Positions 19,928 through 38,718 are shown, numbered from the stretch's first letter. The stretch: DNA of 64,000 nucleotides from Patescibacteria group bacterium (GCA_038063735.1 JBBTUN010000001.1:9751-73750); one strand, 5' to 3'. Program-made: numbers and translations. Notes: a model not told the origin generated them from the sequence alone.

Positions 19928-20472
19928 CATTTTGATAGATACAGTGAAAGTTTCTTTAATGCTTTTGCGCGGTGGGAAATTTTGTTTTTAAGTATTGGAT
20001 CTAGTTGGGCATAAGTTTTGTTGTATCCTGTTGGAATAAAAATTCTGTCAAAACCAAAACCGCTTTCTCCCTTGTTGGTTTTGGATAGAGTACCTTTTAC
20101 TACGCCTTTAAAGATTTTTAATTTTTGCCCGTCGTAAGCGCCAATGGCTGCAGTTACCGTTGTGTCTGATGAGTTTTTGCCGATTAGTTTTACTGTGCCT
20201 TCGGTGCCGATTTTCATCAGAAAAAATTTTATGAAAGTTCCCGGCAAGCCATTGAGTGCTTTTATTTCAAAGCTGATATCCTCAACAACCACGGGTTTTT
20301 TGACAATTTCGTAGGCTGCTTTTGCTTTTGCCTTAATTACTTTGTCTATATCTAGTGATTGGATTTCGTCAAGATCTAGTTCTTTAATTTTGATGTCAGG
20401 ACCTAAGATTTGTCTAATTTCCAAAGCTTTATTTTTATTGGAGGTGATGAAAGTAAAGTATTTAAGATTCAT
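19927..20472 (-). CDS. rdgB: RdgB/Ham1 family non-canonical purine NTP pyrophosphatase (dITP/XTP-ase)
   Basis: TSNKNKALEI, FGFDRIFIP and SHRAKAL motifs. Its start overlaps the RT stop by 4 nt (ATGA). Confidence 0.85.
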   Translation of the reverse strand: MNLKYFTFITSNKNKALEIRQILGPDIKIKELDLDEIQSLDIDKVIKAKAKAAYEIVKKPVVVEDISFEIKALNGLPGTFIKFFLMKIGTEGTVKLIGKNSSDTTVTAAIGAYDGQKLKIFKGVVKGTLSKTNKGESGFGFDRIFIPTGYNKTYAQLDPILKNKISHRAKALKKLSLYLSK

Positions 20473-21497
20473 GATTTTAAATAATAACTGTTTTTCAAGC
20501 TTTGTTGCAATTTAAAACTTTTTGCATGAGAAAAATAACCAAGATATGACTGTAGCGACTGATTCTCAATATACCTTTCTGCAACTTTCTTAAGAATTCT
20601 TCTTTTAGTTTTTGTCCTTGGCAAAGTATGATGAGGCAGGACAATATAGCCGCAAAAGTCGATTCCCCATTTTAACTTTCTCAAAGAGATTTTGTTCGGA
20701 TGAAGCTCCAGTTTTAACTGATCCTTTAAAAAATCGACAATTGAAACCAAATAACTATTTAGTTTTCCAACATCCGTATTAATAATAGTAAAGTCATCAG
20801 CGTAGCGCAGGTAATATTTGATTTTCAGATCGCGTTTGATAAACTGATCAAGTTCGTTCAAATAGATATTGGCAAAAATTTGGCTTGTTAAATTGCCAAG
20901 AGGAATACCTTTTCCAGAGCCTGCTTCTGAATGAAAACTATCTATAACTTCATCAATAAGGTTACTAATATTCTGGTCTTTTACTTTTTTGTACAGCAGG
21001 TTTTTTAAAATGTTATGGTCGATGGAATCGAAAAACTTTTTAATGTCTAGCTTCAAAGCCCAACATTCTCTTGTGTAATTATGGCTAACAATTCTTGCAA
21101 ACGTCTCCAGGCGCCTGACTGCTTTATGCGTCCCTTTTCCAGTTCTGCAAGAGTAAGAATCGCAGATGAACGTTTTATCATATATCTGGTAAAGATGTTT
21201 ATACAATAAATGGTGAAGAACCCTATCTGTCGCATTCGATTTATGGATATGCCTTCTTTTAGGGTCATTTACATAAAAATCTTTGTACGTGCCGTGTCTG
21301 TAAGTTTTATTTTTTAACCTATGGTGCAGGTCAAAAATATTATCTTCAAGATGAAGTTCGAGAATTTGTATATCATGCTTGCCATGTTTTCCCTTTTTAA
21401 ATTCTTCCCATGCTTGAAAAAGGTTTTCAATTGATATTAAACTGGAGTAAGTCATAACTTTTGAATTTTGCGTTTTGACATTTGAACTACTAAACAT
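20469..21497 (-). CDS. diversity-generating retroelement (DGR) reverse transcriptase
   Basis: RT motifs including YADDF. PLGNLTSQIFANIYL carries the DGR-typical [ILV]GxxxSQ in place of QGxxxSP. 342 aa. A cognate TR/VR pair lies nearby. Confidence 0.8.
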   Translation of the reverse strand: MFSSSNVKTQNSKVMTYSSLISIENLFQAWEEFKKGKHGKHDIQILELHLEDNIFDLHHRLKNKTYRHGTYKDFYVNDPKRRHIHKSNATDRVLHHLLYKHLYQIYDKTFICDSYSCRTGKGTHKAVRRLETFARIVSHNYTRECWALKLDIKKFFDSIDHNILKNLLYKKVKDQNISNLIDEVIDSFHSEAGSGKGIPLGNLTSQIFANIYLNELDQFIKRDLKIKYYLRYADDFTIINTDVGKLNSYLVSIVDFLKDQLKLELHPNKISLRKLKWGIDFCGYIVLPHHTLPRTKTKRRILKKVAERYIENQSLQSYLGYFSHAKSFKLQQSLKNSYYLKS

Positions 21498-21859
21498 GCC
21501 CCCCCCCCACGGACTTTGCGCCTGATATCCCCATATTTTCCAAACTTTACGACTTTTACAAAAATCTAAGTGGGGAAATTGAAAAATTCCCCAAGACTAA
21601 ACGTTATGGTCTGGGAGCAAAGCTTGATCAGATCGCGCTTGAGCTAATTGAGCTTATCGTGCGGGCAAGCTACTTGCAGCGCGAGCAGAAATTGCCTGTT
21701 CTGGAAAAATCTGTTATATCTGCCGATATTCTTAAGATACTATTAAGACTTGCTAAAGATACCAAAGCGATTGACAATAAAAAATACTTACAGCTAGAAA
21801 GTAATCTTCAGGAAATCGGCCGCATGATTGGCGGCTGGAAACGCTCAATAACAAAGTAA
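21496..21859 (+). CDS. avd: Avd (DGR accessory variability determinant, four-helix-bundle protein); reading frame interrupted by a C10 homopolymer
   Basis: The frame from 21500 to 21859 encodes ...YDFYKNLSGEIEKFPKTKRYGLGAKLDQIALELIELIV...LQEIGRMIGGWKRSITK, which is bAvd-like (compare ...EVGRILGSWIAR). ATG at 21496 is in frame only if the run is C9. As assembled (C10) the ATG frame stops at 21525, and the first in-frame start is GTG at 21659. Confidence 0.55.
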
Positions 21860-21917
21860 AGTTAAGGGAGATACTACAAACAGATCGCAATACCTCCCTT
21901 AAAATACAATTGCAAAA

Positions 21918-22038
21918 TACTCCCGAGGAACGTCCACCAAGATTCGAATTGTGATTGTCAGCGTTCAGATTCGAATTGACGTTCAAGTTGCCGTCACTGT
22001 TGAAGTTCGCATTGATCATGCGACCGTCGTTACGGGAA
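21918..22038 (-). repeat. DGR template repeat (TR), 121 bp, sense on the minus strand
   Basis: Identical to 22414-22534 except at 24 positions, and at every one of them the TR has A on the minus strand. Rich in AAC codons (the spurious ORF 21753..22046). Confidence 0.85.
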
Positions 22039-22401
22039 CCGACCACTAAATTTGCTTTGTGCCATCAGTAGTCACTGCGCCTTCACTTAGATTAGCCAAG
22101 TGTTACCGCTGTATTTTATTTGGAAGCAGCCCTTTGAGTGAACGAAGAACATCTTCACAAGCACAAAACAAGGAGTTTCTTGCTTCTCTATTGCAACGCT
22201 CTAAGCATCCGTGAATGCTTAGATTCTGGCAACTATTTTGAAAATCAAGGATTTTGGTGACCTAAAACCGTAGTTTCAGATGCATTAACCTAATCTCGGA
22301 GTTAGTATAAAAGAGAACTTATTTTCTCACAAGCTCGAAAATTAAAAAAAATTCGAAAAGAACAAAGTTTAAAGAATAAAAAAGTATAAAGGGTCAAAGG
22401 C

Positions 22402-23163
22402 TTAAGCTTTCTTTACTCCCGAGGAACGCCCACCAAGAAGCGAATGGTGATTGTCAGCGCGCAGACCCGAAGCGACGCGCAAGCTGCCGTCACCGCCGAA
22501 GCCCGCAACGACCATGCGACCGCCGCCACGGGAAGCAAGTCGAACCCATGTGCTTACTTCATCTAAATATTTTCCTGTAAATAGCTTACTGTCCTGGCCA
22601 GCAACAATGTATTGGTTAAGATTAAGTATTGTTCTGCCGTCCTTTTTTATTCTTTCCATGAGCTCCTTTTCTTTAGTGTCAAGGTAAGGTGCGTCAATTG
22701 CAGCTTCGTAATCAAAATAGCCCGATGGGTTTTCGTCATTAGTTACAGAATTGCCTTCTTGGACACTGTGACTTTGCATTTTTGGAAACATTTCGCCCAA
22801 AAGATGACGAGTTTCTTGAGTTGCTACTGCTTGTGGAAGAACACCAACTCTGATATTTCTCTTCTCACGTTCTTTCAATTCTTTTTCACTGAGAGGACAC
22901 TGAGCAATATCGAAAGTTACACCAATAAGTTTGCCTCGAGCTTCCCAAATTCGACCAAATGTGTTGGTAACTGCATCTGGAGTATCTAGTTTAAATTCCG
23001 TGACCCCTTCCGCTTTGGGTACAGAAGTTCTTTGGCCATTGTCAAAATGTTCAGGTGCGCCAAGTTGTCTTGCAAGCTGCGCGTTTGCATTAAGGAAGGC
23101 ACGGAGGTGCTTAAATTGATCTCCTTTGAATTCTCCGGCTAATTTTTCTATGTCTGCTGACAT
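22402..23163 (-). CDS. DGR target (variable) protein, 253 aa, VR-encoded C-terminus
   Basis: The C-terminal ...WVRLASRGGGRMVVAGFGGDGSLRVASGLRADNHHSLLGGRSSGVKKA is encoded by the VR. No obvious signal peptide. Noticeably GC-richer than its surroundings. Confidence 0.75.
   Translation of the reverse strand: MSADIEKLAGEFKGDQFKHLRAFLNANAQLARQLGAPEHFDNGQRTSVPKAEGVTEFKLDTPDAVTNTFGRIWEARGKLIGVTFDIAQCPLSEKELKEREKRNIRVGVLPQAVATQETRHLLGEMFPKMQSHSVQEGNSVTNDENPSGYFDYEAAIDAPYLDTKEKELMERIKKDGRTILNLNQYIVAGQDSKLFTGKYLDEVSTWVRLASRGGGRMVVAGFGGDGSLRVASGLRADNHHSLLGGRSSGVKKA
22414..22534 (-). repeat. DGR variable repeat (VR) at the 3' end of the target gene
   Basis: Counterpart of the TR. All 24 differences fall at TR adenines. 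Ends 12 nt before the target gene stop. Confidence 0.85.
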
Positions 23164-23219: not shown

Positions 23220-24761
23220 TTACTCATACTCAATAGTTGCCGGAGGTTTTTGGGTGATGTCGTAAAGGACGCGATTGACGCCACGTACTTCGTTGACAAT
23301 CCGACTTGATACTTTTTCCAAAAAAGCGGGTGGGAATTTGGTCCAATCTGCTGTCATAAAGTCGGTAGTGTCGACCGACCTGAGACTGACAATGTACGAA
23401 TAAGTACGCGCGTCGCCCATGACGCCGACAGACTTTATGGGAAGAAGTGCAGCAAAGGCTTGGCCGACTTTATTATATAAACCGCTTGATTTCAGTTCGG
23501 AAATAAAGATATCGTCAACTTCGCGAAGAATTGCCAAGCGTTCTTCCGTCACCTCTCCAAGTATTCTTATGGCAAGTGCCGGCCCGGGGAAAGGGTGTCT
23601 TTGGATAAACTTCTGAGGGATTTTCAAAAGTAAACCGATTTTCCTGACTTCATCTTTATAAAGGTCTGCGAGCGGTTCGATAAGTTTTAATTTTAGAGAA
23701 TCTGGTAAGGTTACGTTGTGGTGACTTTTTATTTTATCCGCGTGCTTATTAGGCTGAGCAGATTCGATGCGGTCTGGATAAATTGTTCCTTGTCCTAAAA
23801 ACTTGACCTGCCTGCCGGCAGGCGAGGCGTCCTTGATTTTTTCGGCCTCATTTTCAAAAACTTTAAAATATTCCCGAGCAATTACTTTTCTCTTTTCTTC
23901 CGGGTCTACGATGTCGCTTAATGCTTTTAGAAATATTTTTGAGGCGTTTATCGTGGTGAAGTTTTTAAAGCCACCGCAATTAATTATTTTTTTAACTTCT
24001 TCAACTTCATTTTTGCGCATCAAGCCAGTGTCGATAAAAATCAGATGGAGATTGTTGGGTGCGGCAATTTTGATTAAAGTTGCTGCAACAAGCGAGTCAA
24101 CTCCACCGGAAACGGCCATAATTGAATTTTGGCGGCCGACTTTTTGTCGAATTTCTTTAATTATCGAGTCTTTAACTTGTCCAAGATCCCAATCCTTTTT
24201 TACTTTTGAGATATCAAAGAGGAAGTTCTTTAAAACTGTTGTGCCTTTTTGGGTATGGGTAACCTCCGGATGAAATTGAATTCCAAAGATTTTTCTTGAC
24301 AGGTTTTGCTGGCCTGCGAGTTTAGCTGACTTTGTGGAGGCAATACACTCAAAACCTGCAGGAAGTGTGTTGACCTGGTCTCCATGGGAAAACCAAACTA
24401 TTTCTTTTTTCGATAATCCTTTAAAAAGCGGTGACTTGCCTATTTCCAGACTTTCTTTTCCAAATTGTTTTGTTTTTCCGGGAGATACTTTCCCGTTTAG
24501 TTGATGGGCAATTAGCTGGTGGCCATAGCAAATGCCTAAAATCGGGATGTTAAGACCGTAGATTTTTGTATCTGGATGCGGGGCATTTTTTTCATAGACG
24601 GAAAATGGGCTTCCGGAAAAAATTATAGCTGTGGGAGAGAGCTTTTTGAGATCTTCTATCTTAATTTCAGGGTTTACCAGTTCGCTTTTTACCCCGAGTT
24701 CCCTTACGCGTCTTGCAATAAGATGTGCGTATTGTCCACCAAAGTTAATTACCGCAACCAT
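23220..24761 (-). CDS. guaA: GMP synthase (glutamine-hydrolysing)
   Basis: GATase N-terminus (VINFGGQYAHLIARRVRELG), a PP-loop (SGGVDS) and the conserved C-terminus. 513 aa. Confidence 0.9.
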   Translation of the reverse strand: MVAVINFGGQYAHLIARRVRELGVKSELVNPEIKIEDLKKLSPTAIIFSGSPFSVYEKNAPHPDTKIYGLNIPILGICYGHQLIAHQLNGKVSPGKTKQFGKESLEIGKSPLFKGLSKKEIVWFSHGDQVNTLPAGFECIASTKSAKLAGQQNLSRKIFGIQFHPEVTHTQKGTTVLKNFLFDISKVKKDWDLGQVKDSIIKEIRQKVGRQNSIMAVSGGVDSLVAATLIKIAAPNNLHLIFIDTGLMRKNEVEEVKKIINCGGFKNFTTINASKIFLKALSDIVDPEEKRKVIAREYFKVFENEAEKIKDASPAGRQVKFLGQGTIYPDRIESAQPNKHADKIKSHHNVTLPDSLKLKLIEPLADLYKDEVRKIGLLLKIPQKFIQRHPFPGPALAIRILGEVTEERLAILREVDDIFISELKSSGLYNKVGQAFAALLPIKSVGVMGDARTYSYIVSLRSVDTTDFMTADWTKFPPAFLEKVSSRIVNEVRGVNRVLYDITQKPPATIEYE

Positions 24762-24791: not shown

Positions 24792-25763
24792 TCAGAGAAG
24801 TTTTTCTAGACTTTCTTTGATTCTTTCTGTGGGAGTTTTGGCGAGATCTATGTCGAAGCTAGTTTTAGTTAATTTTTCAAAAACTTCCATGTAGCGGGTG
24901 GCAATTTTTACTATTAAATCATTGGGCATTAGGGGTGGTTTACCGCGACCGGAATAACCCTCTTTGGCAAACCAAAGCCGCATGAATTCCTTGTCGTAGT
25001 TTTCCGGTTCTTCTCCGGCTTTAACTTTCTGTTTGTATGTTTTTGCAACCCAAAGTCGGCTTGAATCCGGAGTATGGACTTCATCTATCAAAATAAGCTT
25101 TCCTTTTTTATCAAGACCAAATTCATATTTAGTATCGGCAAGAATAAGGCCTGCTTTGGCATAAAGAGCTGTGCCTCTGTTAAAAATCTTGAGCGCCGCA
25201 TCTTCCACTTGTTTCCAAACTTTTTGGCTGACCAATCCTTTTTGGACAATTTCTTTTGCAGTAATCGGTTCATCGTGGCCACCCTTTCCGGTCGCCCTGG
25301 TAGTTGGTGTGATTACGGGTTTTACCAGTTTTTGATTTTTGGAAAGGCCATCCGGAAATCTGATGCCGTAGATCACTCTACTGCCTGCCTGGTAATTTTT
25401 CCAAAGCGAAGTGTCGGTAACGCCGGTAATATACGCACGGACAACTACTTCAACCGGCAGGGCTTGTACTTCGGAAACCAGCATAATATTGGGGTCGATG
25501 ACGCCAATCATGTGGTTTTGGATAATATCCCTAGTATTTTGAAACCAAAATTCGGAAATTTTATTTAAAACAGCGCCACGAAAAGGAATAAGACCAAGGA
25601 CCCTATCAAAAGCCGAAATTCGGTCAGTTGCAACCAAAACTCTGATGCTATTTAGAGAGTACCAGTCCCGGACTTTACCGCTTTGTCTTTTACCGAGGCC
25701 TTTGACTTCTGTGTTTTTGAGGGCAAGCGGTATCCATTTTTCGATTGTTTTAGTAGGAATCAC
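24792..25763 (-). CDS. purC: SAICAR synthetase (long form)
   Basis: LILIDEVHTPDSSRLW and other PurC blocks. Confidence 0.85.
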   Translation of the reverse strand: MIPTKTIEKWIPLALKNTEVKGLGKRQSGKVRDWYSLNSIRVLVATDRISAFDRVLGLIPFRGAVLNKISEFWFQNTRDIIQNHMIGVIDPNIMLVSEVQALPVEVVVRAYITGVTDTSLWKNYQAGSRVIYGIRFPDGLSKNQKLVKPVITPTTRATGKGGHDEPITAKEIVQKGLVSQKVWKQVEDAALKIFNRGTALYAKAGLILADTKYEFGLDKKGKLILIDEVHTPDSSRLWVAKTYKQKVKAGEEPENYDKEFMRLWFAKEGYSGRGKPPLMPNDLIVKIATRYMEVFEKLTKTSFDIDLAKTPTERIKESLEKLL

Positions 25764-26281
25764 TTCTTTTGGTTTTGATATTTTTTATAACCTTCTGTTT
25801 TCAGCTTTTGGGATTTTTCCCACACACTTTTTACCATATTTTTTTTGTATTCTTCAAGTTTTTGCGAGATACCGGGGTTGGAAAGCGCTAAAATTTGCGC
25901 GGCTAAGATGGCAGCATTTTGGGCTCCATTTATACCAACTGTTGCAACAGGAACACCTGGAGGCATTTGAACCATGGAAAGCAAAGAGTCCAATCCTTCT
26001 AAGGATTTTGATTTTATGGGTACACCGATTACGGGCAAGGTTGTAAGAGAAGCAATGGACCCCGGGAGAGCTGCAGCCCCGCCAGCAGCTGCGATTATAA
26101 CTTTTACACCAATGCTCTTGGCTTTTTGGGCAAAGTCTGCAGTTTCTTTTGGTGACCTGTGGGTTGAGAGAATGTCTAGTTCATATGGAATTTGCAACTT
26201 CTCCAGAAATTCGGCAGCATCGGCCATAACTTCCAAATCGGAATCAGATCCCATTATTATGGCTACTTCGGCTTTTTTCAT
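25760..26281 (-). CDS. purE: N5-CAIR mutase / AIR carboxylase catalytic subunit
   Basis: VAIIMGSDSDL and AAGGAAALPG. Confidence 0.85.
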   Translation of the reverse strand: MKKAEVAIIMGSDSDLEVMADAAEFLEKLQIPYELDILSTHRSPKETADFAQKAKSIGVKVIIAAAGGAAALPGSIASLTTLPVIGVPIKSKSLEGLDSLLSMVQMPPGVPVATVGINGAQNAAILAAQILALSNPGISQKLEEYKKNMVKSVWEKSQKLKTEGYKKYQNQKK

Positions 26282-26348: not shown

Positions 26349-27734
26349 TCATAAGTTTTGTCTTATTTTCTGGACAGTTTCTGCGGCTTTTTTAGGTGCA
26401 TAGCCTATATGTGTTTTGTAGTTTGATAAATTTTCTATTTCGGTAGCTTTTAGATATTTTAAGATTTTTTTATCCTGTTTTAAATTTTTAAAAAGATTAT
26501 TTTCACCTGTTTTTAGCATTTCGTCATAAACTTTCATAGAATGAAGTCTTAATATTTCGTGCATCTCCTGCCTACTTGCCCCGTTTTTCGTGCTTTTTAA
26601 TAGAATTGCTTCCAGGGCAGAAAATGGTCCAAATTGAGCCAGGTTTTTTTCTATATTTTTATTGTTTATGACTAAGTCTTTGACTATGGAACTGGTGATT
26701 GTAAGGATTTCGTCGAGTGCTAAGAAGCTGTCCGGTATCACAAGACGGCGGGATGCGGAATCGTCAAGCGTTCTTTCTAAAAGAGAGTTTGCTGCATTGT
26801 CCCAAGCGACTCGTGAAAGTGTTGCTATATAGCGGGCAAGGGAGCAAATACGTTCGGAATTTTGCGGGTTTCTTTTGAAAGGCATTGCAGACGACCCAAC
26901 TTGTTTTTCCCCAAAAGGTTCGGCGAGCTCCCCAAAGGGTGAAGATTGTAATATCCGCATGTCAAACGCAAATTTATTTAAGCTTTGGGCAATGGAGGAA
27001 AGAAGCGTCAGGACTAAAAAATCCAGCTTTCTTGGGTAAACCTGGCCAGTGATATCAAACGCTTCAATTCCTAAGTCTGTCAGCACATACTCTTCTAGTT
27101 TTTGTGCTTTTTTACCAAGAAGGGAGACATAACTTGCGCTATTTCCAACTGCTCCTTTCATACCTTTGCCCTTTATTTGTTTTTTTACATAATTTAGAAG
27201 TTCTAAGTCCATCAATAGATCCTGCGCGTAATAACTAAACCGATAACCCAAGGTAGTGGGTTCTGCGGGTTGAAGATGTGTGTAGGCCATGCAAACTAAG
27301 TTTTTGTTGGCATCTATTTTTTTGGCCCAGTTCGACAATAAATTTTTTAATTGTTTTTCTATGATTTCAAGCGCTGCTTTAAAGTTGATTGCGTCTGCAT
27401 TATCTTCAATGTCTTGAGATGTAGCCCCCAAGTGGATTTTTCCTCCTCCTATTTTTGCCTGGGCAGCGTATGTCATAACTTCTGCCATAAGGTCGTGTTT
27501 TAGGTCATGCTCAAATTTGTGGGCTGAATCTATGTCAATATTATTTTGATTTTTTACGATGTCTTCTAATTCGGCTTTGGAAACCAGCCCCATTTGGTTC
27601 TGAGCACGAGCCAAGGCAGCCCAGACTTTTCTCCACGTTTTTCTTTTATTAACTTCGGAAAATATTTGGCGCATTTTTACAGATCCATAGCGCCAGGAAA
27701 AGGGGGATTGATAACTGTCGTAAAAATTACTCAT
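26349..27734 (-). CDS. purB: adenylosuccinate lyase
   Basis: GATSQDIEDNA and SSAMPFKRNP signature. Confidence 0.85.
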   Translation of the reverse strand: MSNFYDSYQSPFSWRYGSVKMRQIFSEVNKRKTWRKVWAALARAQNQMGLVSKAELEDIVKNQNNIDIDSAHKFEHDLKHDLMAEVMTYAAQAKIGGGKIHLGATSQDIEDNADAINFKAALEIIEKQLKNLLSNWAKKIDANKNLVCMAYTHLQPAEPTTLGYRFSYYAQDLLMDLELLNYVKKQIKGKGMKGAVGNSASYVSLLGKKAQKLEEYVLTDLGIEAFDITGQVYPRKLDFLVLTLLSSIAQSLNKFAFDMRILQSSPFGELAEPFGEKQVGSSAMPFKRNPQNSERICSLARYIATLSRVAWDNAANSLLERTLDDSASRRLVIPDSFLALDEILTITSSIVKDLVINNKNIEKNLAQFGPFSALEAILLKSTKNGASRQEMHEILRLHSMKVYDEMLKTGENNLFKNLKQDKKILKYLKATEIENLSNYKTHIGYAPKKAAETVQKIRQNL

Positions 27735-28837
27735 GTTAGTATATCTTTTAACCTATTTGATTTTACTGCTTCTTTGATTTCCATCGCGACTCTCCTGCCC
27801 ATACTTAAAGACTCTCCAAATAAGTATTTGCTGTATGGTGTTGCTGCAATTCCCGGGCTTCCGGGCATTCTGGGTGAAACGTCAAAAACAACTATCTCTT
27901 TTTTTGGCGGGCCAGGTGTTATTACAGATTGTAGGGAAAACGGACCTATTACTCCCGGTGCAAAAAGTTTTTTACAAGCCTTTACAAAATTTTCACCCGC
28001 AGCATGCGCCGGCTCCAGTAAAGATTCCAGCGAGGTGACTGCTATATGACCTGCTTCTTCATATTTAATATTGACTAAATTGTCCTTGAGAACCTTTTGC
28101 TGCAAATTGGAAGATAGTCTTAGAAGCCCGTCCAGATTTGTTTGTCTTCTTGTATCGGTTCCGATTAATTCCAAGCGATTTTTTATGGTTGAGTAAAAAA
28201 AGTTAAAATTTATTTGAACTCCTAAAACAAACTCTTCTATTACCGCGCTCTGAAGCGATTCATTAGTAATTAGACCTAAATTGAGTAGTCTTTGGGATTC
28301 ATGTAAATATCCTACAGGACTGTTTACTAGGAAAAAAGCTCTTTCGAACCCTCTTTCTTTTTCCGGTACCTTAACTATAACCAGCTTATCAATGTCTTTT
28401 GGATTTTTAAAAGCCTTTGGATATTTTATTCCCGCTTCATTCAATATATCGTACTGGTTTGGTTTTACGGTCCGCTCTTCTGAGCGCAGTAATTTTTTGT
28501 TTCCAAACATTGGAACTTTAAAATCATTTTCTATGGCATCGTAATCGTTTATGTAAACTTCGAAAGATCGATGGGGGATAAAGATGGAATTTTTGTTGAG
28601 AAGGATCTTTTGGTTATCGGCGTTGAGCAACTCTTTAAACTTGGATACTTCCAGTACCTCATCTACACATCCGATATCGCCTTGTGATTTGTAATAGTGC
28701 GAGTAAGTTTTGTCGCGACCTGGTTCAACTACTACAAGAGTCTTAAGGCCTTCATCCTTGGCACCGCGGCAAACGTCAAGGGCACTGTGGGACCCCAGGA
28801 CTGCTATTGTGTAATCTTTTATGCTTTTTGCTTTCAT
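27731..28837 (-). CDS. purP: archaeal-type FAICAR synthetase paralog 1 (ATP-grasp, formate-dependent)
   Basis: IAVLGSHSALDVCRGAKDEGL, FIPHRSFEVY, KVPMFGNKKLL and GVIGPFSLQSV align with the archaeal PurP as I remember it. Confidence 0.75.
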   Translation of the reverse strand: MKAKSIKDYTIAVLGSHSALDVCRGAKDEGLKTLVVVEPGRDKTYSHYYKSQGDIGCVDEVLEVSKFKELLNADNQKILLNKNSIFIPHRSFEVYINDYDAIENDFKVPMFGNKKLLRSEERTVKPNQYDILNEAGIKYPKAFKNPKDIDKLVIVKVPEKERGFERAFFLVNSPVGYLHESQRLLNLGLITNESLQSAVIEEFVLGVQINFNFFYSTIKNRLELIGTDTRRQTNLDGLLRLSSNLQQKVLKDNLVNIKYEEAGHIAVTSLESLLEPAHAAGENFVKACKKLFAPGVIGPFSLQSVITPGPPKKEIVVFDVSPRMPGSPGIAATPYSKYLFGESLSMGRRVAMEIKEAVKSNRLKDILT

Positions 28838-30108
28838 TTGTATATTACCTGACCTCTTTTTGGTCCTACCGAAATAAATTTAACAGGTACTCCTGTGTAT
28901 TTCTCTATTGCTTTGAGATAAATTTGTGCGTTTTTAGGTAATTTATCAAAAAATCTAACCGCCGTTATATCTTCTTTCCAACCTTTAAATTCCAGGTAAA
29001 CCGGCTTAATTTTTGCCAGACTTTGGGAATCATGCGGCGAGTATTGCACTTCTTTTGACCCTTGCTTATATTTTATGCAAAGTTTTAAAGATTTAAGACC
29101 GGATAAAACATCAAGTTTAGTGATCGCTAGTCCTGTTAATTTATTTGACTTTGCAGCGACTTTAACCAGAACCAAATCAAGCCAACCGGGGGAGCGCACA
29201 CGCCCTGTTGTCGTACCTACTTCCCTACCAATTTCTATTATTTTTTGGGCAATTTCCCCTTCCATTTTTGTAGGCATTGGTCCCCCTCCTACCCTGGTCG
29301 TGTAAGCTTTGGTTATCCCTATTACCTCTTTGATTTGGGTGGGGTGAATATCAAAACTCCTCCAAACGCCAACTACTCCGGGATTTGACGATGTAACGAA
29401 TGGGTATGTACCGGCATCTATATCTAAAAAATAACCCTGAGCACCTTCGAATAAAACATTTTTGCCGGAGTTTACTGCTTTCTGGACAATCGCAGATGTA
29501 GGGTGAATAAATTTTGAAATTCTTGCGGAGTATTTTTTGTAATCTTGATATACTTTGTCGGCATTTATTTTTAGATTAAAAAAAGCATTTTGGATTTTTA
29601 CCTCATCTGTAATTTTTTGCTTTAAATCTTTTGAACTTAGATCTTCTGCCAATAAACCTACCCTCTCTGTTCTGTCAGCATATGTTGGCCCTACGCCTCT
29701 GCCGGTTGTACCTACTTTGTTCGTGCGAAATTTTTCCCTTATTCCATCACGCATTTTATGCCAGGGCATTGTTAGTGACGCTTGCTCGTCGATTAATAAA
29801 TTTTTGTAAGATACTTTTGCTTTATCTAATTGATCTAATTCCCAGATTAAAGATTCAACATCAACTGCAACATTTCGACCAACAATACAGATTACACTTT
29901 TGTTAAAAATTCCGGACGGGATTATATGGAGCGCAAAATTTCCATACTGATTATTTACGGTGTGGCCCGTGTTTGATCCGCCATTATAGCGGGCAACAAT
30001 GTCGGCACGGTTGGACAGGTCATCAATTAACCGACCTTTGCCGGAGTCACCCCAATCGATACCCATTACAACTGTTGTTCCTTGCCAAGTTTTTAAATTG
30101 TTTTTCAT
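28834..30108 (-). CDS. purA: adenylosuccinate synthetase
   Basis: GIDWGDSGKGRLID and GGSNTGHTV. Confidence 0.9.
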   Translation of the reverse strand: MKNNLKTWQGTTVVMGIDWGDSGKGRLIDDLSNRADIVARYNGGSNTGHTVNNQYGNFALHIIPSGIFNKSVICIVGRNVAVDVESLIWELDQLDKAKVSYKNLLIDEQASLTMPWHKMRDGIREKFRTNKVGTTGRGVGPTYADRTERVGLLAEDLSSKDLKQKITDEVKIQNAFFNLKINADKVYQDYKKYSARISKFIHPTSAIVQKAVNSGKNVLFEGAQGYFLDIDAGTYPFVTSSNPGVVGVWRSFDIHPTQIKEVIGITKAYTTRVGGGPMPTKMEGEIAQKIIEIGREVGTTTGRVRSPGWLDLVLVKVAAKSNKLTGLAITKLDVLSGLKSLKLCIKYKQGSKEVQYSPHDSQSLAKIKPVYLEFKGWKEDITAVRFFDKLPKNAQIYLKAIEKYTGVPVKFISVGPKRGQVIYK

Positions 30109-31124
30109 CAGTCTAATATTTTTTTTAGTTGATTTTTCTTAATTGCTTCTTTAATTTCCATAGCAATCCGTCTGCCGGTTGAAACATCATTATCATAATA
30201 AAGCGAAGCATACGGCGAACCATTGATAAATAAATTTGTACCCGCAACTATCCGACAGGAAATTTCTATAATAGAGAATTTTTGTTCGGGAGTAATAATT
30301 GTTTCTAAACAAAATGGTCCCCAAATTCCCCTGTTATTAATTATCTTTTTGGACGACTCAATTACCCTTTCGCCCATTTCGTAAGCTTGGGCGAGCAGAG
30401 ATTCACGAAGCGCCAAAGGTGAATTACCAACAACTACAAAGCTTGGTTCGATTCCCAGACCCGTTTGGTTTTGGACCGGGATTCTTCCTAACGAATCAAC
30501 ATTTGTTTCGTAACGTTTATCGATAGAAAGTATCTGCAGTTCTTGATTTATTGGTGAATAAAAGTAGTGAATGTATACTGGGACCCCGATAACATATTCT
30601 TGGACAATAAAATTTTTTGGTTTATATTTTTTTATTCTTCTATCAAAGTCGCTTTGGGTTTTAGCAAAGAAGTAGCCATGCCCGCCTGATGCTCCAAAAG
30701 ATTTTACAATAACCGGCCTATCAATTTTATCGCCTTTTTTGAATCTTTTCGGAATTGGAATAGCGGCATCCAGCATCCATTCCCTCTGAAGTTTTCTGTC
30801 CGATTCCCAATCTAAAACAGCCTTGTTGCCAAAATAAGGGACTTTCATTTTCTTATTTTCTTCGAGCCCTAAATAAGCAACAAAAGAACCGTGAGGAATG
30901 ATAATTGCGTTTTGATTGATTAAGTCTTTTTCTATATTTGGAAACTGTGCGTGATTTTTTATTTCTATGATTTTGTCTATGAATTTAAAACGCCTATAAA
31001 GCGCTATTTTATCTGGAGTGCAAATAAGGATTGCTTCGAAGCCTTCGTCGCGAGCGCCTTTTAAAATTTGAAGAGCAGAGTGCGAGCAAAGAGTAGCGAT
31101 CTTATACTTTTTTAGTGCCGCCAT
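30108..31124 (-). CDS. purP: archaeal-type FAICAR synthetase paralog 2
   Basis: IATLCSHSALQILKGARDEGF, IPHGSFVAYLG, VPYFGNKAVLDWESDRKL and ILSIDKRYETNVDSLGRIP. Very close to the archaeal PurP consensus. Confidence 0.8.
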   Translation of the reverse strand: MAALKKYKIATLCSHSALQILKGARDEGFEAILICTPDKIALYRRFKFIDKIIEIKNHAQFPNIEKDLINQNAIIIPHGSFVAYLGLEENKKMKVPYFGNKAVLDWESDRKLQREWMLDAAIPIPKRFKKGDKIDRPVIVKSFGASGGHGYFFAKTQSDFDRRIKKYKPKNFIVQEYVIGVPVYIHYFYSPINQELQILSIDKRYETNVDSLGRIPVQNQTGLGIEPSFVVVGNSPLALRESLLAQAYEMGERVIESSKKIINNRGIWGPFCLETIITPEQKFSIIEISCRIVAGTNLFINGSPYASLYYDNDVSTGRRIAMEIKEAIKKNQLKKILD

Positions 31125-31206
31125 CCGTGAATTATATAGGAATTGTGGCTAAAATGCAAAAAGGCGAACTTGGTCCTTGATTTTAAGGTGGCTATAATGT
31201 AGTCTA

Positions 31207-31710
31207 ATGCACAAAGTTGCAATGGCAGTTAAAAGAAAACTAACAAAAATCGAGGATAAAAGCGTAAAAGCAACTGCCCAAACAAGCAAGCCAATACTCC
31301 TGGCGGTTTCGTCTATAAGAATGACGATCGCAAAGATCGCATCTTTTCAGATGGTATCCCAATTATTATCAACAGTATTTTATATTATATGGATTTTGGT
31401 TGGAATATTTTTTCTTTGGTTTATAGTTGCAAATTTCAGAGTGGGTGCATTTGATCAATTGATATCAAGACCGCAGCCCGTTAGTCAAACACCAGATCAA
31501 TCTCAAACTCCAGCAGAAACTGCAGTACCGGGTATTGGTAAAGTAAATGTAGCGTGTGTGCAAAAAAACTTAAGCGAGGAATCGATTGTAAAAATGGTTC
31601 AGGAAAAAAGTGATAAGAGTTTATCTGACGATGAAAAGAAAAAACTTGCAGAGTGTGTACTAGAGAAGGCTTCTCCAGTGACACAAGCTTCACCGTCACC
31701 AAAGCAGTAA
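31207..31710 (+). CDS. hypothetical membrane protein inserted antisense in the pur operon
   Basis: 167-aa ORF with one TM helix and a Pro/Ser/Thr-rich segment. Confidence 0.4.
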   Translation: MHKVAMAVKRKLTKIEDKSVKATAQTSKPILLAVSSIRMTIAKIASFQMVSQLLSTVFYIIWILVGIFFLWFIVANFRVGAFDQLISRPQPVSQTPDQSQTPAETAVPGIGKVNVACVQKNLSEESIVKMVQEKSDKSLSDDEKKKLAECVLEKASPVTQASPSPKQ

Positions 31711-31721
31711 CTGTTAGCTCC

Positions 31722-32819
31722 TTATCTCAAATCCAGAGTTTGCGCAGAAAAAGTAATGTTTTTGGGTTTAATAATAACTTGTCTTTCGCCTTTTTCGATA
31801 AAGCCGGCATCAAGTGGTAAAAATTTATTTTTTGAAATGATATTCATTGTTTTTTCTACGTCATTTTTACCAACGAACAGTGCGTAGTCCTGGCCCATGT
31901 TATATGTATCGTAAATTTCCGGATCTGTTAAACTCGCCTGCTCTTGAATAAAAACGAAGATTTCCTGTGGTGTAAATATTTTTTCGATAACATATGTAAA
32001 GTTTCCTCTTGCTCTCATAACTTTTCTAAGTCCATGGCCTGTGATGTTAGAAATATAGTGAATGTTTATATTCGAATCAAGAAGTTCTTGAATTAGGTGC
32101 GCGTATATATTAGTCTTTGTTAAAATCTCTTCTCCGTAAATTTTCCCGCTGGGTAGTTTTGTCCCGTAACCTTTTTTTAATTTTTTGGAAACTGCCCGTG
32201 CCAGAGACAGTCCGTTTGCGTTGATTCCATTGGATTTTATAAAAATTATTCTATCGCCAGCTTTTAATTTATCGTCCGTGATTAAATATTTCTTATTCTT
32301 TATAAGCCCGATTGCGCTACCACCAAGATCTATCGTATTCTTTTCCACTATACCTTTAAGAGTTGGTGTTTCTCCGCCACCCCATGTTGCACCGGAAATT
32401 CGACACGCACTCGCCCACCCTAAAATTAAATCTGACATCCTTTTTTCGTCTAACAACCAGGCGTTGTCTTCTATTGCCCAGTACGCATGCAGGACAAGAG
32501 GCTTTGCACCAACAGAAATTAAATCGTTAATAATTGATGCAACCGTATCGTGGCCAATGATATCGTAATAAGTTTTTCCAGTAATTTTTCTTGTTTCGTC
32601 TGCAACCAAATTTTTTGTTCCTAAGCCTTCAACCACCGATGCCAGCAGTTGTTTTCCAACTTGCCATACAAAAGCGGATTCCCCACGGGATTTAGTAATT
32701 TCACTAAAATTGGCATTTTCGATTTTTGTTTCTCGGGCTGCAACTTGCGCCAGTTTTTTAATGGGATCTTTTGTATCGTAGTTGTCTCCCACCTTGGAGT
32801 AAGTTATTTTTTTATTCAT
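31722..32819 (-). CDS. purM: AIR synthetase (phosphoribosylformylglycinamidine cyclo-ligase)
   Basis: EGLGTKNLVA. The start is trimmed to the internal ATG (MNKKITYSKVGDNYD...), which gives an ATGA overlap with purQ. The ORF track extends to 32900. Confidence 0.8.
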   Translation of the reverse strand: MNKKITYSKVGDNYDTKDPIKKLAQVAARETKIENANFSEITKSRGESAFVWQVGKQLLASVVEGLGTKNLVADETRKITGKTYYDIIGHDTVASIINDLISVGAKPLVLHAYWAIEDNAWLLDEKRMSDLILGWASACRISGATWGGGETPTLKGIVEKNTIDLGGSAIGLIKNKKYLITDDKLKAGDRIIFIKSNGINANGLSLARAVSKKLKKGYGTKLPSGKIYGEEILTKTNIYAHLIQELLDSNINIHYISNITGHGLRKVMRARGNFTYVIEKIFTPQEIFVFIQEQASLTDPEIYDTYNMGQDYALFVGKNDVEKTMNIISKNKFLPLDAGFIEKGERQVIIKPKNITFSAQTLDLR

Positions 32820-33604
32820 GAGTGACTTGCAAATTTTACCAAATTGTCGAAAATATACTTTCCGGTTAAATTTATTTCTGATTTTTGAAATCTTCGCCAA
32901 TTTGGATGTTGCGTAACATCCACAAGTTTCTCCGGATGAGGCATCATACCAAAAATTCTCCCGGTTGGGTCACAAAGTCCTGCTATTGCTTTGATGGAAC
33001 CACTTGGGTTGTATGGATAATTTTGAGTCTGGTTACCGTTTCGGTCAATATATCGGGCTACTACCAAATTATCTTTTTCTATTTTGTTAATAATTTTATT
33101 TGGTGCCAGTAATTTGCCTTCGCCATGATTAACTGCTATGTCCAGTCCATCTTTGGGTAGGCTAACCTTGTTGAGAAAAATGCACTTACTCTCTTCCAGC
33201 TTAATTTTGACCCACCTGCATTCAAAATGTCCACTTTCGTTTTGGGCGAGCGTAACATTCATTTTGCCTATTTTGTTGTATGGTAATAAACCCGTCCGGA
33301 CTAATGTTTGGAAACCGTTACATATGCCGAGAATTAAGCCTCTTTGGTTAATAAACTCTTCTAGCTGATTTTTTAAAAAAGAAATTAATTCGATAGCAAG
33401 AATTTTGCCACTAGCTAAATCGTCTCCGTATGAGAATCCTCCCGGCAGAGCAAGTATTTGGAAGTCCTTTAATTTCTTTGATTTATCCCTTAATTCATTT
33501 ACTTGAACAAACTTGGGATTACCTCCAAATTTTTCAAAAGCGTAATAAAGCTCTTGGTCACAATTGGTTCCATCGCTTCTTAATATGCAAACTTTAGGCT
33601 TCAT
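32816..33604 (-). CDS. purQ: FGAM synthase, glutaminase subunit
   Basis: MKPKVCILRSDGTNCD...LALPGGFSYGDD. The start is trimmed to 33604, giving an ATGA overlap with purL. The ORF track extends to 33637. Confidence 0.85.
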   Translation of the reverse strand: MKPKVCILRSDGTNCDQELYYAFEKFGGNPKFVQVNELRDKSKKLKDFQILALPGGFSYGDDLASGKILAIELISFLKNQLEEFINQRGLILGICNGFQTLVRTGLLPYNKIGKMNVTLAQNESGHFECRWVKIKLEESKCIFLNKVSLPKDGLDIAVNHGEGKLLAPNKIINKIEKDNLVVARYIDRNGNQTQNYPYNPSGSIKAIAGLCDPTGRIFGMMPHPEKLVDVTQHPNWRRFQKSEINLTGKYIFDNLVKFASHS

Positions 33605-36435
33605 GAATGGAATATCTCCTTCATGGGTTTTTGCCATACCTGCTTTAGCTTATCAACTGATATGCTTACAATTTGTTTCTTACCGGATTTAATCTTGATA
33701 GTTTTTTCTTTTTGAGTCTTTCCAATTATTTTGTGTGGAATTTTGGAAAACAAACTTTTTGTCGCTTTTTCATCTTTTACCTCTAACAAAAATGTTCCCG
33801 GTGTTTCTGAAAACAAGATAAATTCACTTCTTGTTTTCTTGTCTATTTGTGATAGGTCAATTGAAGCACCACAGGCTCCTCCAAAACACATTTCCGAAAT
33901 GGCAGATATTAAACCGCCTTCAGAAATGTCGTGTATAGATAATATCTTGCCGGACTTTGCCGAAGCAGTTATTGTCGATAGGACTTTTGGTAACAATTTA
34001 AGGTCTACTTGGGGAATTTTTGCTGATTTTGACCCAGTGATGTCAAAATAAATTGTGCCTCCTAAGTTTTTGAGATCACTTTTTCCTACCAAAACAACTA
34101 TAGAGTTTGTGGATTTAAAATCTGAGGAAATTGTTTTTGATACATCGGGGATTTTCCCAAAAACGGATATTAAAAGAACCGGTGGAATTTTTAAAGTTTT
34201 TCCATCTGGGTAACGATATGTTGATGATAGGCTATCTTTACCGGAGACAAAAGGCATTTTTAGTAAATTTGCGAAATCCACACACGCATCAACAGATTTA
34301 TCCAGATCGGCTAAAGACTCCTCGTCCGGAAATGGCCAAATAAAATTATCTATTAAGGCTGCGTCTTTTAAATCTCCGCCTATGGCCACATAATTTGAAA
34401 CTGCTTCCGTTAGCGCCCAGATACTGCCCCAATAAATATCTATATTGTTAAGAACAGGATTTAAGCCGTGAGTTGTTATTACCCCGTAAGGTTTGGACAA
34501 CATTGGCTTGATTGCCACACCATCGTTTGGAGCATCAAGATCTGCTCCAGAAAATGGATAAAGGGCTGTTGTTCCTTGAACATTATGGTCGTACATCCTG
34601 ACAATTGGTTCTTTAGATGCAATATTTGGATGAGAAATTATTTTTTTAATGATTGATTCGTAGTCTTTAATTTTTTTTGGCAATTCTTCATTTATCTTTA
34701 TTGATTTTGACCTTCCAACCATATGCCTCTGGGGAAGACCATTGTGTAAAAATTGCATTGACAAATTTGCAACCATCTCCTTTTTGTAATTTATTATTAG
34801 TTTATTTGAGTTGGTAATTTTGCCGATTTGGGCAAAAGGAACGTTGTACAAGTCACAAATTTTTTCTACATTTTTTAAATTCTTTCCTGATATTGCTATA
34901 ACCATTCTTTCTTGTGATTCAGATAAAAATATTTCCCATGGAGCAAGGTTTGGATATTTTAATGGTACCTTTGCAAGTTGAATTTCTGCTCCAGTTTTCT
35001 TGGCCATTTCTCCTACCGCCGATGAAAAACCGCCTGCTCCACAATCCGTAATTGATGAGATCAAGTTTTGATTTTCCATTATTAAAATTGCATCAATCAC
35101 CCTTTTTTCCTCAATCGCATTCCCAATTTGCACCGCGCTTCCGGATATATTCATTGTTTTGTCCGACATTTCTGCCGATGAAAATGTCGCTCCATGTATG
35201 CCATCCCTTCCGGTTGCCCCACCCATAGTTATGATTAAATCTCCAATTTGTGGTTCTTTTTTAGTAGCACTCTTTTTGGGCAATACTCCATATGATCCAA
35301 CGGCGACGGTTGGTTTTGCCCTAAAATCATTATGAAAATGAATAGACCCATTGTTTGTCGGGATGCCTACCCTGTTTCCATAGTCCCTAACTCCTGCAAC
35401 AACTCTTCTTAAAAGGTAGGCCGGGGGTAAACAGCCTGGAGGAGTGTTTATGGAGTCCATGTCCGGATTTGCAAAGCAAAATATATCGGTCGAAATTATG
35501 GGTTTTGCCCCTTGACCTGTTCCTAAAATATCCCGGAAAACCCCGCCGGAACCGGTCATTGCGCCACCATATGGTTCAATTGCCGATGGGCTATTGTGTG
35601 TTTCCACTTTTCCGTTTATCGCATACCCATCATAAAAATCAATAACGCCTGAGTTGTCGACAAAAGCGCTTATAATTATTTTCTTATTGTTTTTAGCGGT
35701 TGATTTTATTCTTTCAAACAACGGCTTTTTTAGCTTACCGTCAATTGTTAATTTTGCGTTAAATGTCTTATGGACACAGTGTTCGCTCCAAGTTTGTGCA
35801 AGAATTTCTATTTCACAATCTGTTGGATCCCTATTAATTTTTTGAAAATATGCTCTTATTATTTTCATTTCTTCAAGGTTTAAAAATAACTTGTCTTTTG
35901 AAAGTTGCATAAGTTTTAGATCGTTAAGTTTTCTTATCGGAATTATTTTTGTTTTTTGAGGTTCTCCGCCGATTACTAGAGTTTTTGGTGGGGTTTTGAC
36001 TATATGTTCAACAGTTTTATTTACCAGTAATTTGTTTATTATTTCACTAATTAGATTTTCATTTACTTTTCCAAAAAAAGCATATTCGTAAGAAGAATCG
36101 GCTGCGAGTAATTTTATGCCAAGGTCGCTAGCCGCTTTAGTAATTGATGCAACCTCTGGATTCATAACACCCGGTTTATAGGCAACCTCTACAGTTTTAT
36201 TAGCTTTGTAAATAGGTTTTCTGTAGGATATTATTTGATCGATTGGTTCGTAAAGGGCTTTTTCTGCTAACTTTTTAACATCTCTTTGAGAAATTCCCTC
36301 AAGCCTGTAAACTTTTGAGGTTTTGATACTTGTTATCGAATTATTTTTGAATGTTCTTTTTATTTCCGCGAGAAGTTCTTGTCCTTTTGAATCTGTCTTA
36401 CCGCTTGAGGCTATTCTAATGGTTGCGATCATCAA
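33601..36435 (-). CDS. purL: FGAM synthase II with an N-terminal PurS-like domain (purS-purL fusion)
   Basis: 944 aa. The first ~85 aa are PurS-like and the rest is PurL (two AIRS-like repeats). Confidence 0.8.
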   Translation of the reverse strand: MMIATIRIASSGKTDSKGQELLAEIKRTFKNNSITSIKTSKVYRLEGISQRDVKKLAEKALYEPIDQIISYRKPIYKANKTVEVAYKPGVMNPEVASITKAASDLGIKLLAADSSYEYAFFGKVNENLISEIINKLLVNKTVEHIVKTPPKTLVIGGEPQKTKIIPIRKLNDLKLMQLSKDKLFLNLEEMKIIRAYFQKINRDPTDCEIEILAQTWSEHCVHKTFNAKLTIDGKLKKPLFERIKSTAKNNKKIIISAFVDNSGVIDFYDGYAINGKVETHNSPSAIEPYGGAMTGSGGVFRDILGTGQGAKPIISTDIFCFANPDMDSINTPPGCLPPAYLLRRVVAGVRDYGNRVGIPTNNGSIHFHNDFRAKPTVAVGSYGVLPKKSATKKEPQIGDLIITMGGATGRDGIHGATFSSAEMSDKTMNISGSAVQIGNAIEEKRVIDAILIMENQNLISSITDCGAGGFSSAVGEMAKKTGAEIQLAKVPLKYPNLAPWEIFLSESQERMVIAISGKNLKNVEKICDLYNVPFAQIGKITNSNKLIINYKKEMVANLSMQFLHNGLPQRHMVGRSKSIKINEELPKKIKDYESIIKKIISHPNIASKEPIVRMYDHNVQGTTALYPFSGADLDAPNDGVAIKPMLSKPYGVITTHGLNPVLNNIDIYWGSIWALTEAVSNYVAIGGDLKDAALIDNFIWPFPDEESLADLDKSVDACVDFANLLKMPFVSGKDSLSSTYRYPDGKTLKIPPVLLISVFGKIPDVSKTISSDFKSTNSIVVLVGKSDLKNLGGTIYFDITGSKSAKIPQVDLKLLPKVLSTITASAKSGKILSIHDISEGGLISAISEMCFGGACGASIDLSQIDKKTRSEFILFSETPGTFLLEVKDEKATKSLFSKIPHKIIGKTQKEKTIKIKSGKKQIVSISVDKLKQVWQKPMKEIFHS

Positions 36436-38690: not shown

Positions 38691-38718
38691 TTGAAAATGA
38701 GCGTAAATTTGGTATAAT
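38691..38718 (+). promoter_or_regulatory. sigma70 promoter TTGAAA-N16-TATAAT for RNase P RNA
   Basis: -35 at 38691-96 and -10 at 38713-18. The mature 5' end is predicted about 7 nt downstream. Confidence 0.55.

Follow-up and report, generated by a model that had tools for sequence, protein, structure and literature searches.

The stretch of DNA examined here, 64,000 nucleotides from a genome labelled Patescibacteria group bacterium (GCA_038063735.1 JBBTUN010000001.1:9751-73750; this whole stretch is called the window), carries on its minus strand a purine gene cluster that runs from a purN-purD fusion through guaA. Within this cluster, two open reading frames (ORFs) of the PurP family, purP_A and purP_B (encoding copy A and copy B), flank purA. 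A preliminary description had read them as two archaeal-type PurP genes flanking purA in a bacterial pur operon, and Pfam, the structure matches and the purA models all bear this out. The four genes that concern us most are the following.

30108-31124, minus strand: purP_A, 338 amino acids, assigned to the cluster Ib or "PurP II" type of ATP-grasp protein (DUF1246 + DUF1297, structure matches, tree)
28834-30108, minus strand: purA, adenylosuccinate synthetase, bacterial type, 424 amino acids (PF00709, E 1e-149; NF002223, 477 bits, cut-off 402)
27731-28837, minus strand: purP_B, 368 amino acids, assigned to the cluster II or "PurP III" type (DUF1246 + DUF1297, residues, tree)
26349-27734, minus strand: purB, adenylosuccinate lyase, which converts succinylaminoimidazole carboxamide ribonucleotide (SAICAR) to 5-aminoimidazole-4-carboxamide ribonucleotide (AICAR) (TIGR00928, 390 bits, cut-off 326)

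Stop and start codons overlap at all three junctions (purP_A/purA, TGATG; purA/purP_B, ATGA; purP_B/purB, ATGA), and the four genes are, as read from the sequence, translationally coupled. purA exceeds two NCBIfam equivalog cut-offs. The sample was the 0.1-um fraction of Hainich groundwater, and a protein identical to copy A (100%) belongs to a metagenome-assembled genome listed at NCBI as "Patescibacteria group bacterium" (P0121). The host is a bacterium, as seen from the window ORFs for RecA, RecX, RNase Y, RpoA with its alpha carboxy-terminal domain and a bacterial S10/spc operon; homologue searches place its nearest named relatives in Candidatus Curtissbacteria, of the candidate phyla radiation (CPR). 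Its ribosomal-protein operon passes directly from S5 to L15 without L30 (56656-57575, and likewise L083:16258-17177, such labels denoting the loci compared), and the missing L30 at this place is a CPR trait.

Both PurP-family proteins are covered over their full length by DUF1246 and DUF1297, with E-values from 1e-41 to 1e-68: copy A scores 142 and 228 bits and copy B 141 and 207 bits, the Pfam gathering cut-offs being 25 and 23.8. Copy A matches PF1517 (2r84) over its full length with 374 bits (E 4e-111, about 60% identity) and Mj0136 (2r7k) with 293 bits (E 2e-86); copy B matches 2r7k with 225 bits (E 1e-65) and 2r84 with an E-value of 8e-49. The hallmark motifs that had been listed for both ORFs are found in part. 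Copy A has IPHGSF, VPYFGN and DKRYETN, while its CSHSAL and GPFCLE deviate from GSHSAL and GPF(C/S)LQ; copy B has GSHSAL, VPMFGN and GPFSLQ, while IPHRSF and DTRRQTN replace IPHGSF and DKRYE(S/T)N. Homologue searches return hundreds of conserved orthologues for each copy, and NCBI names the A type "formate--phosphoribosylaminoimidazolecarboxamide ligase" and the B type "DUF1297 domain-containing protein."

Archaeal PurP proteins have been sorted into classes Ia or PurP I (Mj0136), Ib or PurP II (PF1517), II or PurP III (PF0421) and PurP IV (Thermococcus kodakarensis, 2pbz), and each archaeon with PurP II carries exactly one PurP III (PMC6486802, PMC3261824). We aligned 100 sequences, comprising the window copies, Mj0136 and PF1517 (both read off pairwise alignments with the window copies) and homologues from 57 of the 80 loci that copy B had retrieved from the GTDB species genomes; PF0421 was not included. 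The resulting neighbor-joining tree, which is distance based, separates A-type sequences, among them Mj0136 and PF1517, from B-type sequences in all 30 bootstraps. Copy A groups with these two and copy B with archaeal cluster II, and both lie outside cluster Ia. By these comparisons, copy A is a PurP cluster Ib (PurP II) protein and copy B a PurP cluster II (PurP III) protein, and because of the split between the two types the pair is an ancient archaeal one rather than a local duplication. Two genes of the same family, 1.3 kb apart on the same strand, could also have arisen by a recent duplication of purP, with one copy now drifting or decaying, and the preliminary description had supposed duplicated paralogs that may have diverged. 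However, the copies are 31% identical to each other and 45-60% identical to their own archaeal cluster, the bootstrap split is complete, the conserved residues of copy B are common to archaea, and each copy has its own large set of orthologues. On the tree and the residue patterns, we regard a recent duplication as refuted; the two genes are instead an ancient cluster I/cluster II pair that was inherited as a unit.

Residue roles in PurP are taken from Brown et al. 2011, and hence second-hand from structural work. According to that report (Mj0136 numbering), the formyl-contacting residues His27 and Arg314 are universal in PurP, Asn258 touches the AICAR carboxamide and is invariably His in cluster II, and the P-loop (K/R)GG(K/R)G has gained two residues and lost its glycines in cluster II (PMC3261824). 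Copy A retains His27, Ser94, Asn258, Ser266, Glu310 and Arg314, and with them every ligand-contacting residue named for Mj0136 (formate, AICAR and phosphate); its P-loop reads GASGGHG. Copy B has His at position 258 (in AGH), Arg93 and Asp310, and its loop, PEKERGFERAFF, is 2 amino acids longer than the GARGG--RGYF of Mj0136 and lacks the GG. It nevertheless retains His27, Arg228, Glu265, Ser266, Arg314, the VIVK Lys and the EEF hinge, and its position 310 is still acidic. Both copies and all 98 aligned homologues have His27 and Arg314; Asn258 and the GG loop occur in all A-type sequences, and His258 in every B-type sequence, whether from CPR (33/33) or from archaea (22/22). Specific to cluster II, in CPR and archaea alike, are Arg93 in place of Gly (54 of 55 sequences, the remaining one having Lys) and Asp310 in place of Glu (55 of 55), and the ER(A)FF loop motif is invariant or nearly so among B-type sequences. 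Since cluster II has its own conserved residues in both domains of life, the copy B site is evidently constrained and re-tooled, not decaying. Its active-site positions showed no difference between loci with and without PurH.

Loci with copy B were found among CPR in Curtiss-, Davies-, Levy- and Roizmanbacteria (core Microgenomates), Gottesmanbacteria, Peregrinibacteria, Peribacteria and Gracilibacteria, and among archaea in Thermoplasmatota, Micrarchaeota, Woesearchaeota, Methanofastidiosia, Bathyarchaeota and Thaumarchaeota. On the A side of the tree and on the B side alike, CPR sequences are nested within groups of DPANN and other archaeal sequences, the two topologies mirroring each other, and copy B of CPR, DPANN and some Thermoplasmatota bears a common derived signature of Arg229, Gln230 and Ser318-Pro319-Gly320. 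Position 264 of copy B in core Microgenomates is Leu, Pro or Val, not Arg/Lys. These patterns fit a movement of the PurP pair as a unit between the domains, that is, between CPR and DPANN or other archaea, of which a distance tree leaves the number and direction unresolved. A and B are adjacent or one to two genes apart in almost all CPR and DPANN loci examined; in most loci no gene separates them, and the junction is often one of -4 to +4 nucleotides. B was not found without A, and B is retained where PurH, PurJ or PurO occurs. In most Microgenomates loci purP_B also adjoins purB, a link between PurP and purB that Brown et al. noted for Sulfolobales too (PMC3261824).

According to a 2019 survey, none of the bacteria among 1,403 complete genomes has PurP (PMC6486802). 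The presence of PurP in bacteria contradicts this published confinement to Archaea: the cluster I + II pair is a standard part of pur operons in many CPR lineages, though PurP is treated as an archaeal signature. We found no paper that discusses PurP in CPR or in Curtissbacteria. Bacterial PurP is, however, already visible in database annotations, and the pair itself is the known archaeal PurP II + III system.

Some records carry titles that do not suit their genes. Microgenomates-type pur operons appear under "uncultured Gammaproteobacteria," "Limnocylindrales" or "Lysobacterales" (L002, L006, L007, L015, L017, L018, L020, L031, L033, L049, L014 and L026), and L025, a record named "Nanoarchaeota archaeon," holds an operon of bacterial appearance in which guaA is fused. 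These titles are probably taxonomic mislabels or misbins.

The preliminary description had also found the window to be without purH, and here Pfam and tblastn agree: PurH, PurF and PurK were not found in the 64 kb, either by Pfam in nearly all ORFs of at least 100 amino acids or by tblastn with the CPR proteins. No Pfam match to PurO (PF07826) or to an MGS-only gene came from the scanned ORFs of the window or from its annotated flanks, and purH, purF, purK and PurO were not found in another 10 kb at either end. Nor was purH found within 10 kb on either side of the pair in Curtissbacteria-type loci. That a near-complete pur pathway should occur in a reduced CPR genome had been thought notable; such operons turn out to be common across Microgenomates loci.

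Matters are different in sister lineages, where ORF clustering placed a full-length PurH (MGS + AICARFT_IMPCHas, about 510 amino acids) in the pur cluster of 14 CPR loci. The gene order is purP_A-purP_B-purH-purB in loci of the Daviesbacteria type, purP_A-purH-(histidine phosphatase)-purP_B in L014 and L016 (the latter a complete Levybacteria chromosome) and purP_A-purH-purA-purP_B in L008 and L021. By comparison, loci of the Curtissbacteria type (the window, L001-L004, L010, L022 and L085) read purP_A-purA-purP_B, and the Roizmanbacteria and Gottesmanbacteria types have A-B with no purH in the locus. Only loci of the Curtissbacteria type, L008 and L021 have purA inserted between their purP genes. 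In our alignment, the Microgenomates PurH that accompanies the pair retains Lys66, Tyr104, Asp125, Lys137 and the KH motif, residues that we take to be the PurH consensus, and these PurH proteins look functional. A degenerate IMP cyclohydrolase (IMPCH) domain in them (IMP being inosine 5'-monophosphate) was considered and ruled out, all of the residues just named being there. It had been proposed that finding purH alongside PurP copies with degraded ATP-grasp motifs would speak against a PurP route; purH does occur alongside in sister CPR lineages, but the motifs are not degraded. The underlying choice, between purH and functional PurP, fails because relatives hold purH together with undegraded PurP motifs. 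Ten archaea have likewise been reported to have PurP II, PurP III and PurH, matching the co-occurrence in CPR.

The IMPCH stretch of these Microgenomates PurH proteins (L005-L009, L011-L014, L016, L021 and L049; e.g., L008:6104-7615) reads GRMKT(I/L)SFQIESGIL in place of GRVKTLHPxxHGGIL, which we presume to be the canonical form; the PurH proteins of Peregrinibacteria and Methanoperedens are canonical here. In L038 and L041, a canonical purH lies 3-10 kb upstream of the purP_A-purP_B pair. In these two and in L035, L037 and L040 (Peregrinibacteria, Peribacteria and Gracilibacteria), the pair is not part of any pur cluster and adjoins nucleotidyltransferase and glycosyltransferase genes.

Whether purH lies elsewhere in such genomes can be approached through large contigs. 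Close homologues of the pair lie on sixteen contigs of at least 100 kb, of which three are about 1 Mb long. Only one of the sixteen (739,645 bp) is also among the contigs found for PurH homologues, which were listed down to 47% identity; that list includes the known PurH-bearing contigs of L014, L016 and L021. purH thus appears, on the contigs so compared, to have been lost in the Curtissbacteria-type lineage, presumably from the whole genome, although purO, purJ by itself or a very divergent purH may be present elsewhere in it.

The co-occurrence with PurH raises the possibility that the pair acts outside steps 9-10 of the pathway altogether, in some other ATP-dependent ligation on an aminoimidazole-like nucleotide or in the handling of AICAR (also called ZMP), with IMP supplied through a distant purH, through purV/purJ/purO or by salvage. 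Loci of the Daviesbacteria, Levybacteria and L008/L021 types, whose operon itself includes an intact PurH, would be consistent with this, as would the position of the pair outside pur clusters in Peregrinibacteria loci, the reported inactivity of the Pyrococcus furiosus orthologues and the occurrence of the pair in K. cryptofilum, which has no de novo pathway (PMC3261824). The operon purK, too, is variably present among close relatives, showing that pur genes move or vanish. On the other hand, copy A keeps all of the Mj0136 contacts to formate, AICAR and phosphate, the pair sits near-universally beside purB in CPR pur operons, and 15 of the 16 large contigs showed no vertically related PurH. 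We consider a function of this kind improbable.

The interpretation that we favor, if only slightly on its own merits, is that the CPR orthologues of PurP II and PurP III are obligate partners in one formate- and ATP-dependent enzyme acting on AICAR, and that purH is gone in this lineage. Copies A and B would form, probably, a hetero-oligomer of two ATP-grasp paralogues, independent of folate, whose substrate would be the AICAR produced by the adjoining purB; it is the wide conservation of the purP_B-purB adjacency that links the pair to AICAR. Copy A would make formyl phosphate and FAICAR (5-formamidoimidazole-4-carboxamide ribonucleotide), while copy B, with its nucleotide-phosphate and formyl contacts retained and its site re-tooled, would be required for activity. 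The pair would then constitute the route from AICAR towards IMP, the purH between purP_A and purA being gone, and ring closure to IMP might take place at the altered site of copy B, a step that we hold to be less likely than not, or else be carried out by some unlinked cyclohydrolase. We prefer a partnership to two independent enzymes because B does not occur without A and is not lost where a cyclohydrolase is present, because B retains the nucleotide-binding residues of an ATP-grasp protein, and because the P. furiosus proteins have been reported to be inactive. Cruz et al. speculated on a PurP II/III heterohexamer (PMC6486802). PurP II + III occur without PurH, PurJ, PurO and PurV in 37 archaeal genomes, and extracts of Sulfolobus solfataricus convert ZMP to IMP with formate (PMC3261824).

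Several points weigh against such an enzyme. [quoted passage not shown] Neither copy passes the NCBIfam FAICAR synthetase equivalogs (PRK13278.x), copy A reaching at best 405 bits against a cut-off of 580 and copy B 275 against 590. With only cluster Ia active and these cut-offs not reached, the FAICAR synthetase assignment (the formate/ATP route) made in the preliminary description was an extrapolation. The P-loop of copy A, SGGHG, retains its glycines and lacks both basic residues of (K/R)GG(K/R)G; among its 120 closest homologues, 84 have SGGHG or AGGHG and the fourth P-loop residue is non-basic in 108. The intact-looking PurH in the same operon of many sister CPR lineages means that the pair is not simply a replacement for PurH. 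The search of the host for purH, purJ and purO spans about 84 kb of contig only, and a physical complex between A and B is our proposal.

The altered site of copy B also invites a different division of labor, in which copy A alone is a FAICAR synthetase (step 9) and copy B is a new, ATP-grasp-derived IMP cyclohydrolase (step 10), the two jointly taking the place of both PurH halves, an idea raised by Brown et al. (PMC3261824). The His258 of cluster II would be a plausible general base for attack of the carboxamide nitrogen on a formyl group held by His27 and Arg314, and the glycine-rich ATP loop is lost in copy B. Moreover, many archaea, and apparently CPR of the Curtissbacteria type, have the pair without a known cyclohydrolase, and FAICAR did not cyclize spontaneously at 60 C within 30 min. 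However, the VIVK Lys, the EEF hinge and the acidic residue at 310, all kept in copy B, would be needless in a cyclohydrolase, and P. furiosus PurP II on its own was reported to be inactive. In addition, the retention of B beside PurH, PurJ or PurO, with the same site whether or not PurH is present, fits an obligate partner better. We consider two separate enzymes to be unlikely.

The need for a separate IMP cyclohydrolase, pointed out in the preliminary description, is nonetheless a real question, there being no PurO in the window and the same issue arising in Crenarchaeota and Pyrococcus. The cyclohydrolase of archaea that have only PurP II/III had not been identified as of 2019, and we found no later report. 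One tentative suggestion, compatible with either arrangement of the two copies, is that copy B, alone or with copy A, is itself the missing IMP cyclohydrolase, with His258 as the ring-closure base. If this were true, the pair would be a self-sufficient, folate-independent AICAR-to-IMP machine built of two ATP-grasp paralogues, and the missing cyclohydrolase would have been found for Crenarchaeota, Thaumarchaeota, Pyrococcus and those CPR of the Curtissbacteria type that have only PurP II + III. Another gene that we considered for this role is c22, a divergent M24 ("pita-bread") fold ORF of about 296 amino acids that is found inside the pur operons of six CPR loci, with purQ or purD on one side and purM on the other (L003:4122-5015, L004, L026:4996-5880, L027:6849-7739, L031 and L036, none with purH in view); it is ruled out as the cyclohydrolase here, being missing from the window, L001, L002 and L085.

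Two further roles for copy B were set aside. A substitute for PurK (N5-carboxyaminoimidazole ribonucleotide synthetase) is ruled out, given the genuine purK beside copy B in L001, L014, L016, L017, L021 and L026, where it lies between purB and purE; purK does not lie there in the window or in L085. A PurT-like glycinamide ribonucleotide (GAR) formyltransferase is unlikely, PurN being encoded in the window and in most related loci. FolD occurs in the CPR pur operons of L020 (4026-4871) and L042, and serine hydroxymethyltransferase in those of the Gottesmanbacteria-type loci L027, L031, L034 and L036, in all cases with PurN, so that folate-dependent one-carbon metabolism coexists with the formate-type PurP pair.

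Set against the known systems, copy A resembles archaeal PurP II (PF1517, 2r84-2r87) in its domain pair, Asn258, GG loop scaffold, His27, Arg314 and cluster II partner. It differs in its CPR host, in its P-loop (SGGHG versus KGGKG) and in the operon around it, which is of bacterial type and includes a purN-purD fusion, a bacterial-type purA and a fused guaA. Copy B resembles archaeal PurP III of the PF0421 type, PF0421 itself not having been compared, in His258, the loop that is 2 amino acids longer and without glycines, Arg93, Asp310 and its place in the tree, and differs in having a bacterial host. With the PurP of Methanocaldococcus jannaschii (MJ0136, EC 6.3.4.23), both share the ATP-grasp family and fold, and copy A all of the ligand contacts; yet Mj0136 is a single gene product that works alongside PurO, whereas the window has two paralogues and PurO is not in view. 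Bacterial PurH (AICAR formyltransferase + IMPCH) occupies the same position in the pathway, and in sister CPR its gene lies beside or between the purP genes, but its fold is unrelated and it uses 10-formyltetrahydrofolate where PurP uses formate and ATP.

What PurP II/III do, and which protein is the missing IMP cyclohydrolase, are questions that have stood since 2008-2011. CPR offer operons that have purH and operons that lack it as a natural series, in genomes of about 1 Mb and with mesophilic proteins; these would permit complementation of an Escherichia coli purH mutant, and assays at 30-37 C, in a way that proteins from hyperthermophiles did not.

The remaining features of the purine gene cluster and its surroundings are as follows.

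36480-38372, minus strand: purN-purD fusion, folate-dependent GAR formyltransferase + GAR synthetase (Formyl_trans_N + GARS_N/A/C)
33601-36435, minus strand: purL with an N-terminal PurS-like extension (AIRS, AIRS_C and FGAR-AT linker domains; weak PurS match)
32816-33637, minus strand: purQ (GATase_5, E 3e-79; TIGR01737, 193 bits, cut-off 178)
31722-32900, minus strand: purM (AIRS/AIRS_C; TIGR00878, 183 bits, under the cut-off)
31207-31710, plus strand: small membrane-like ORF, 167 amino acids, divergent, between purM and purP_A (no Pfam match)
31131-31160, minus strand: sigma-70-like promoter match TTTGCA-18-TATAAT, immediately 5' of purP_A (consensus match only)
25760-26281, minus strand: purE, class I-like (TIGR01162, 212 bits)
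24792-25763, minus strand: purC, SAICAR synthetase (NF009251, 392 bits, cut-off 371)
23220-24761, minus strand: guaA, fused bacterial-type GMP synthase (NF000848, 687 bits)

The true start of purM is probably near 32819, where it would overlap the purQ stop; the purM orthologue in L085 has 365 amino acids. The promoter match at 31131-31160 is a possible start of a transcription unit from purP_A to guaA; it is a consensus match only, and the region overall holds no excess of such sites. The small ORF beside it has a 55% identical counterpart at the same place in L001, where L085 has a gene of 163 amino acids. The 70s loop of purE reads GGAAALPG, that of class I PurE being, as we take it, GGAAHLPG.

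Beyond guaA lies a diversity-generating retroelement (20469-23163, minus strand), with a reverse transcriptase (RVT_1) at 20469-21497, a template repeat at 21918-22038, a variable repeat at 22414-22534 and a target ORF at 22402-23163. One copy of the 121-nucleotide repeat pair lies at the C-terminal end of the target ORF, which encodes 253 amino acids and has no Pfam match, and the other lies beside the reverse transcriptase. All 24 of the 24 mismatches between them fall on adenines of the template copy (17 A>G, 5 A>C and 2 A>T). The element is a recent insertion, because guaA and ham1, which flank it here, are adjacent in L001, L003, L004 and L085. A sigma-70-like promoter match (12/12) lies at 23203-23175.

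At the other end of the cluster, a search for a riboswitch upstream of the pur operon found none; the structured RNA there is RNase P RNA. It is a divergent bacterial class A form (38730-39137, plus strand) that matches the full model (1-367) with 77.6 bits and an E-value of 1.4e-23, a score below the gathering score of 100, and it escaped the default Rfam scan. At 38691-38718 lies a promoter-like TTGAAA-16-TATAAT with TG.

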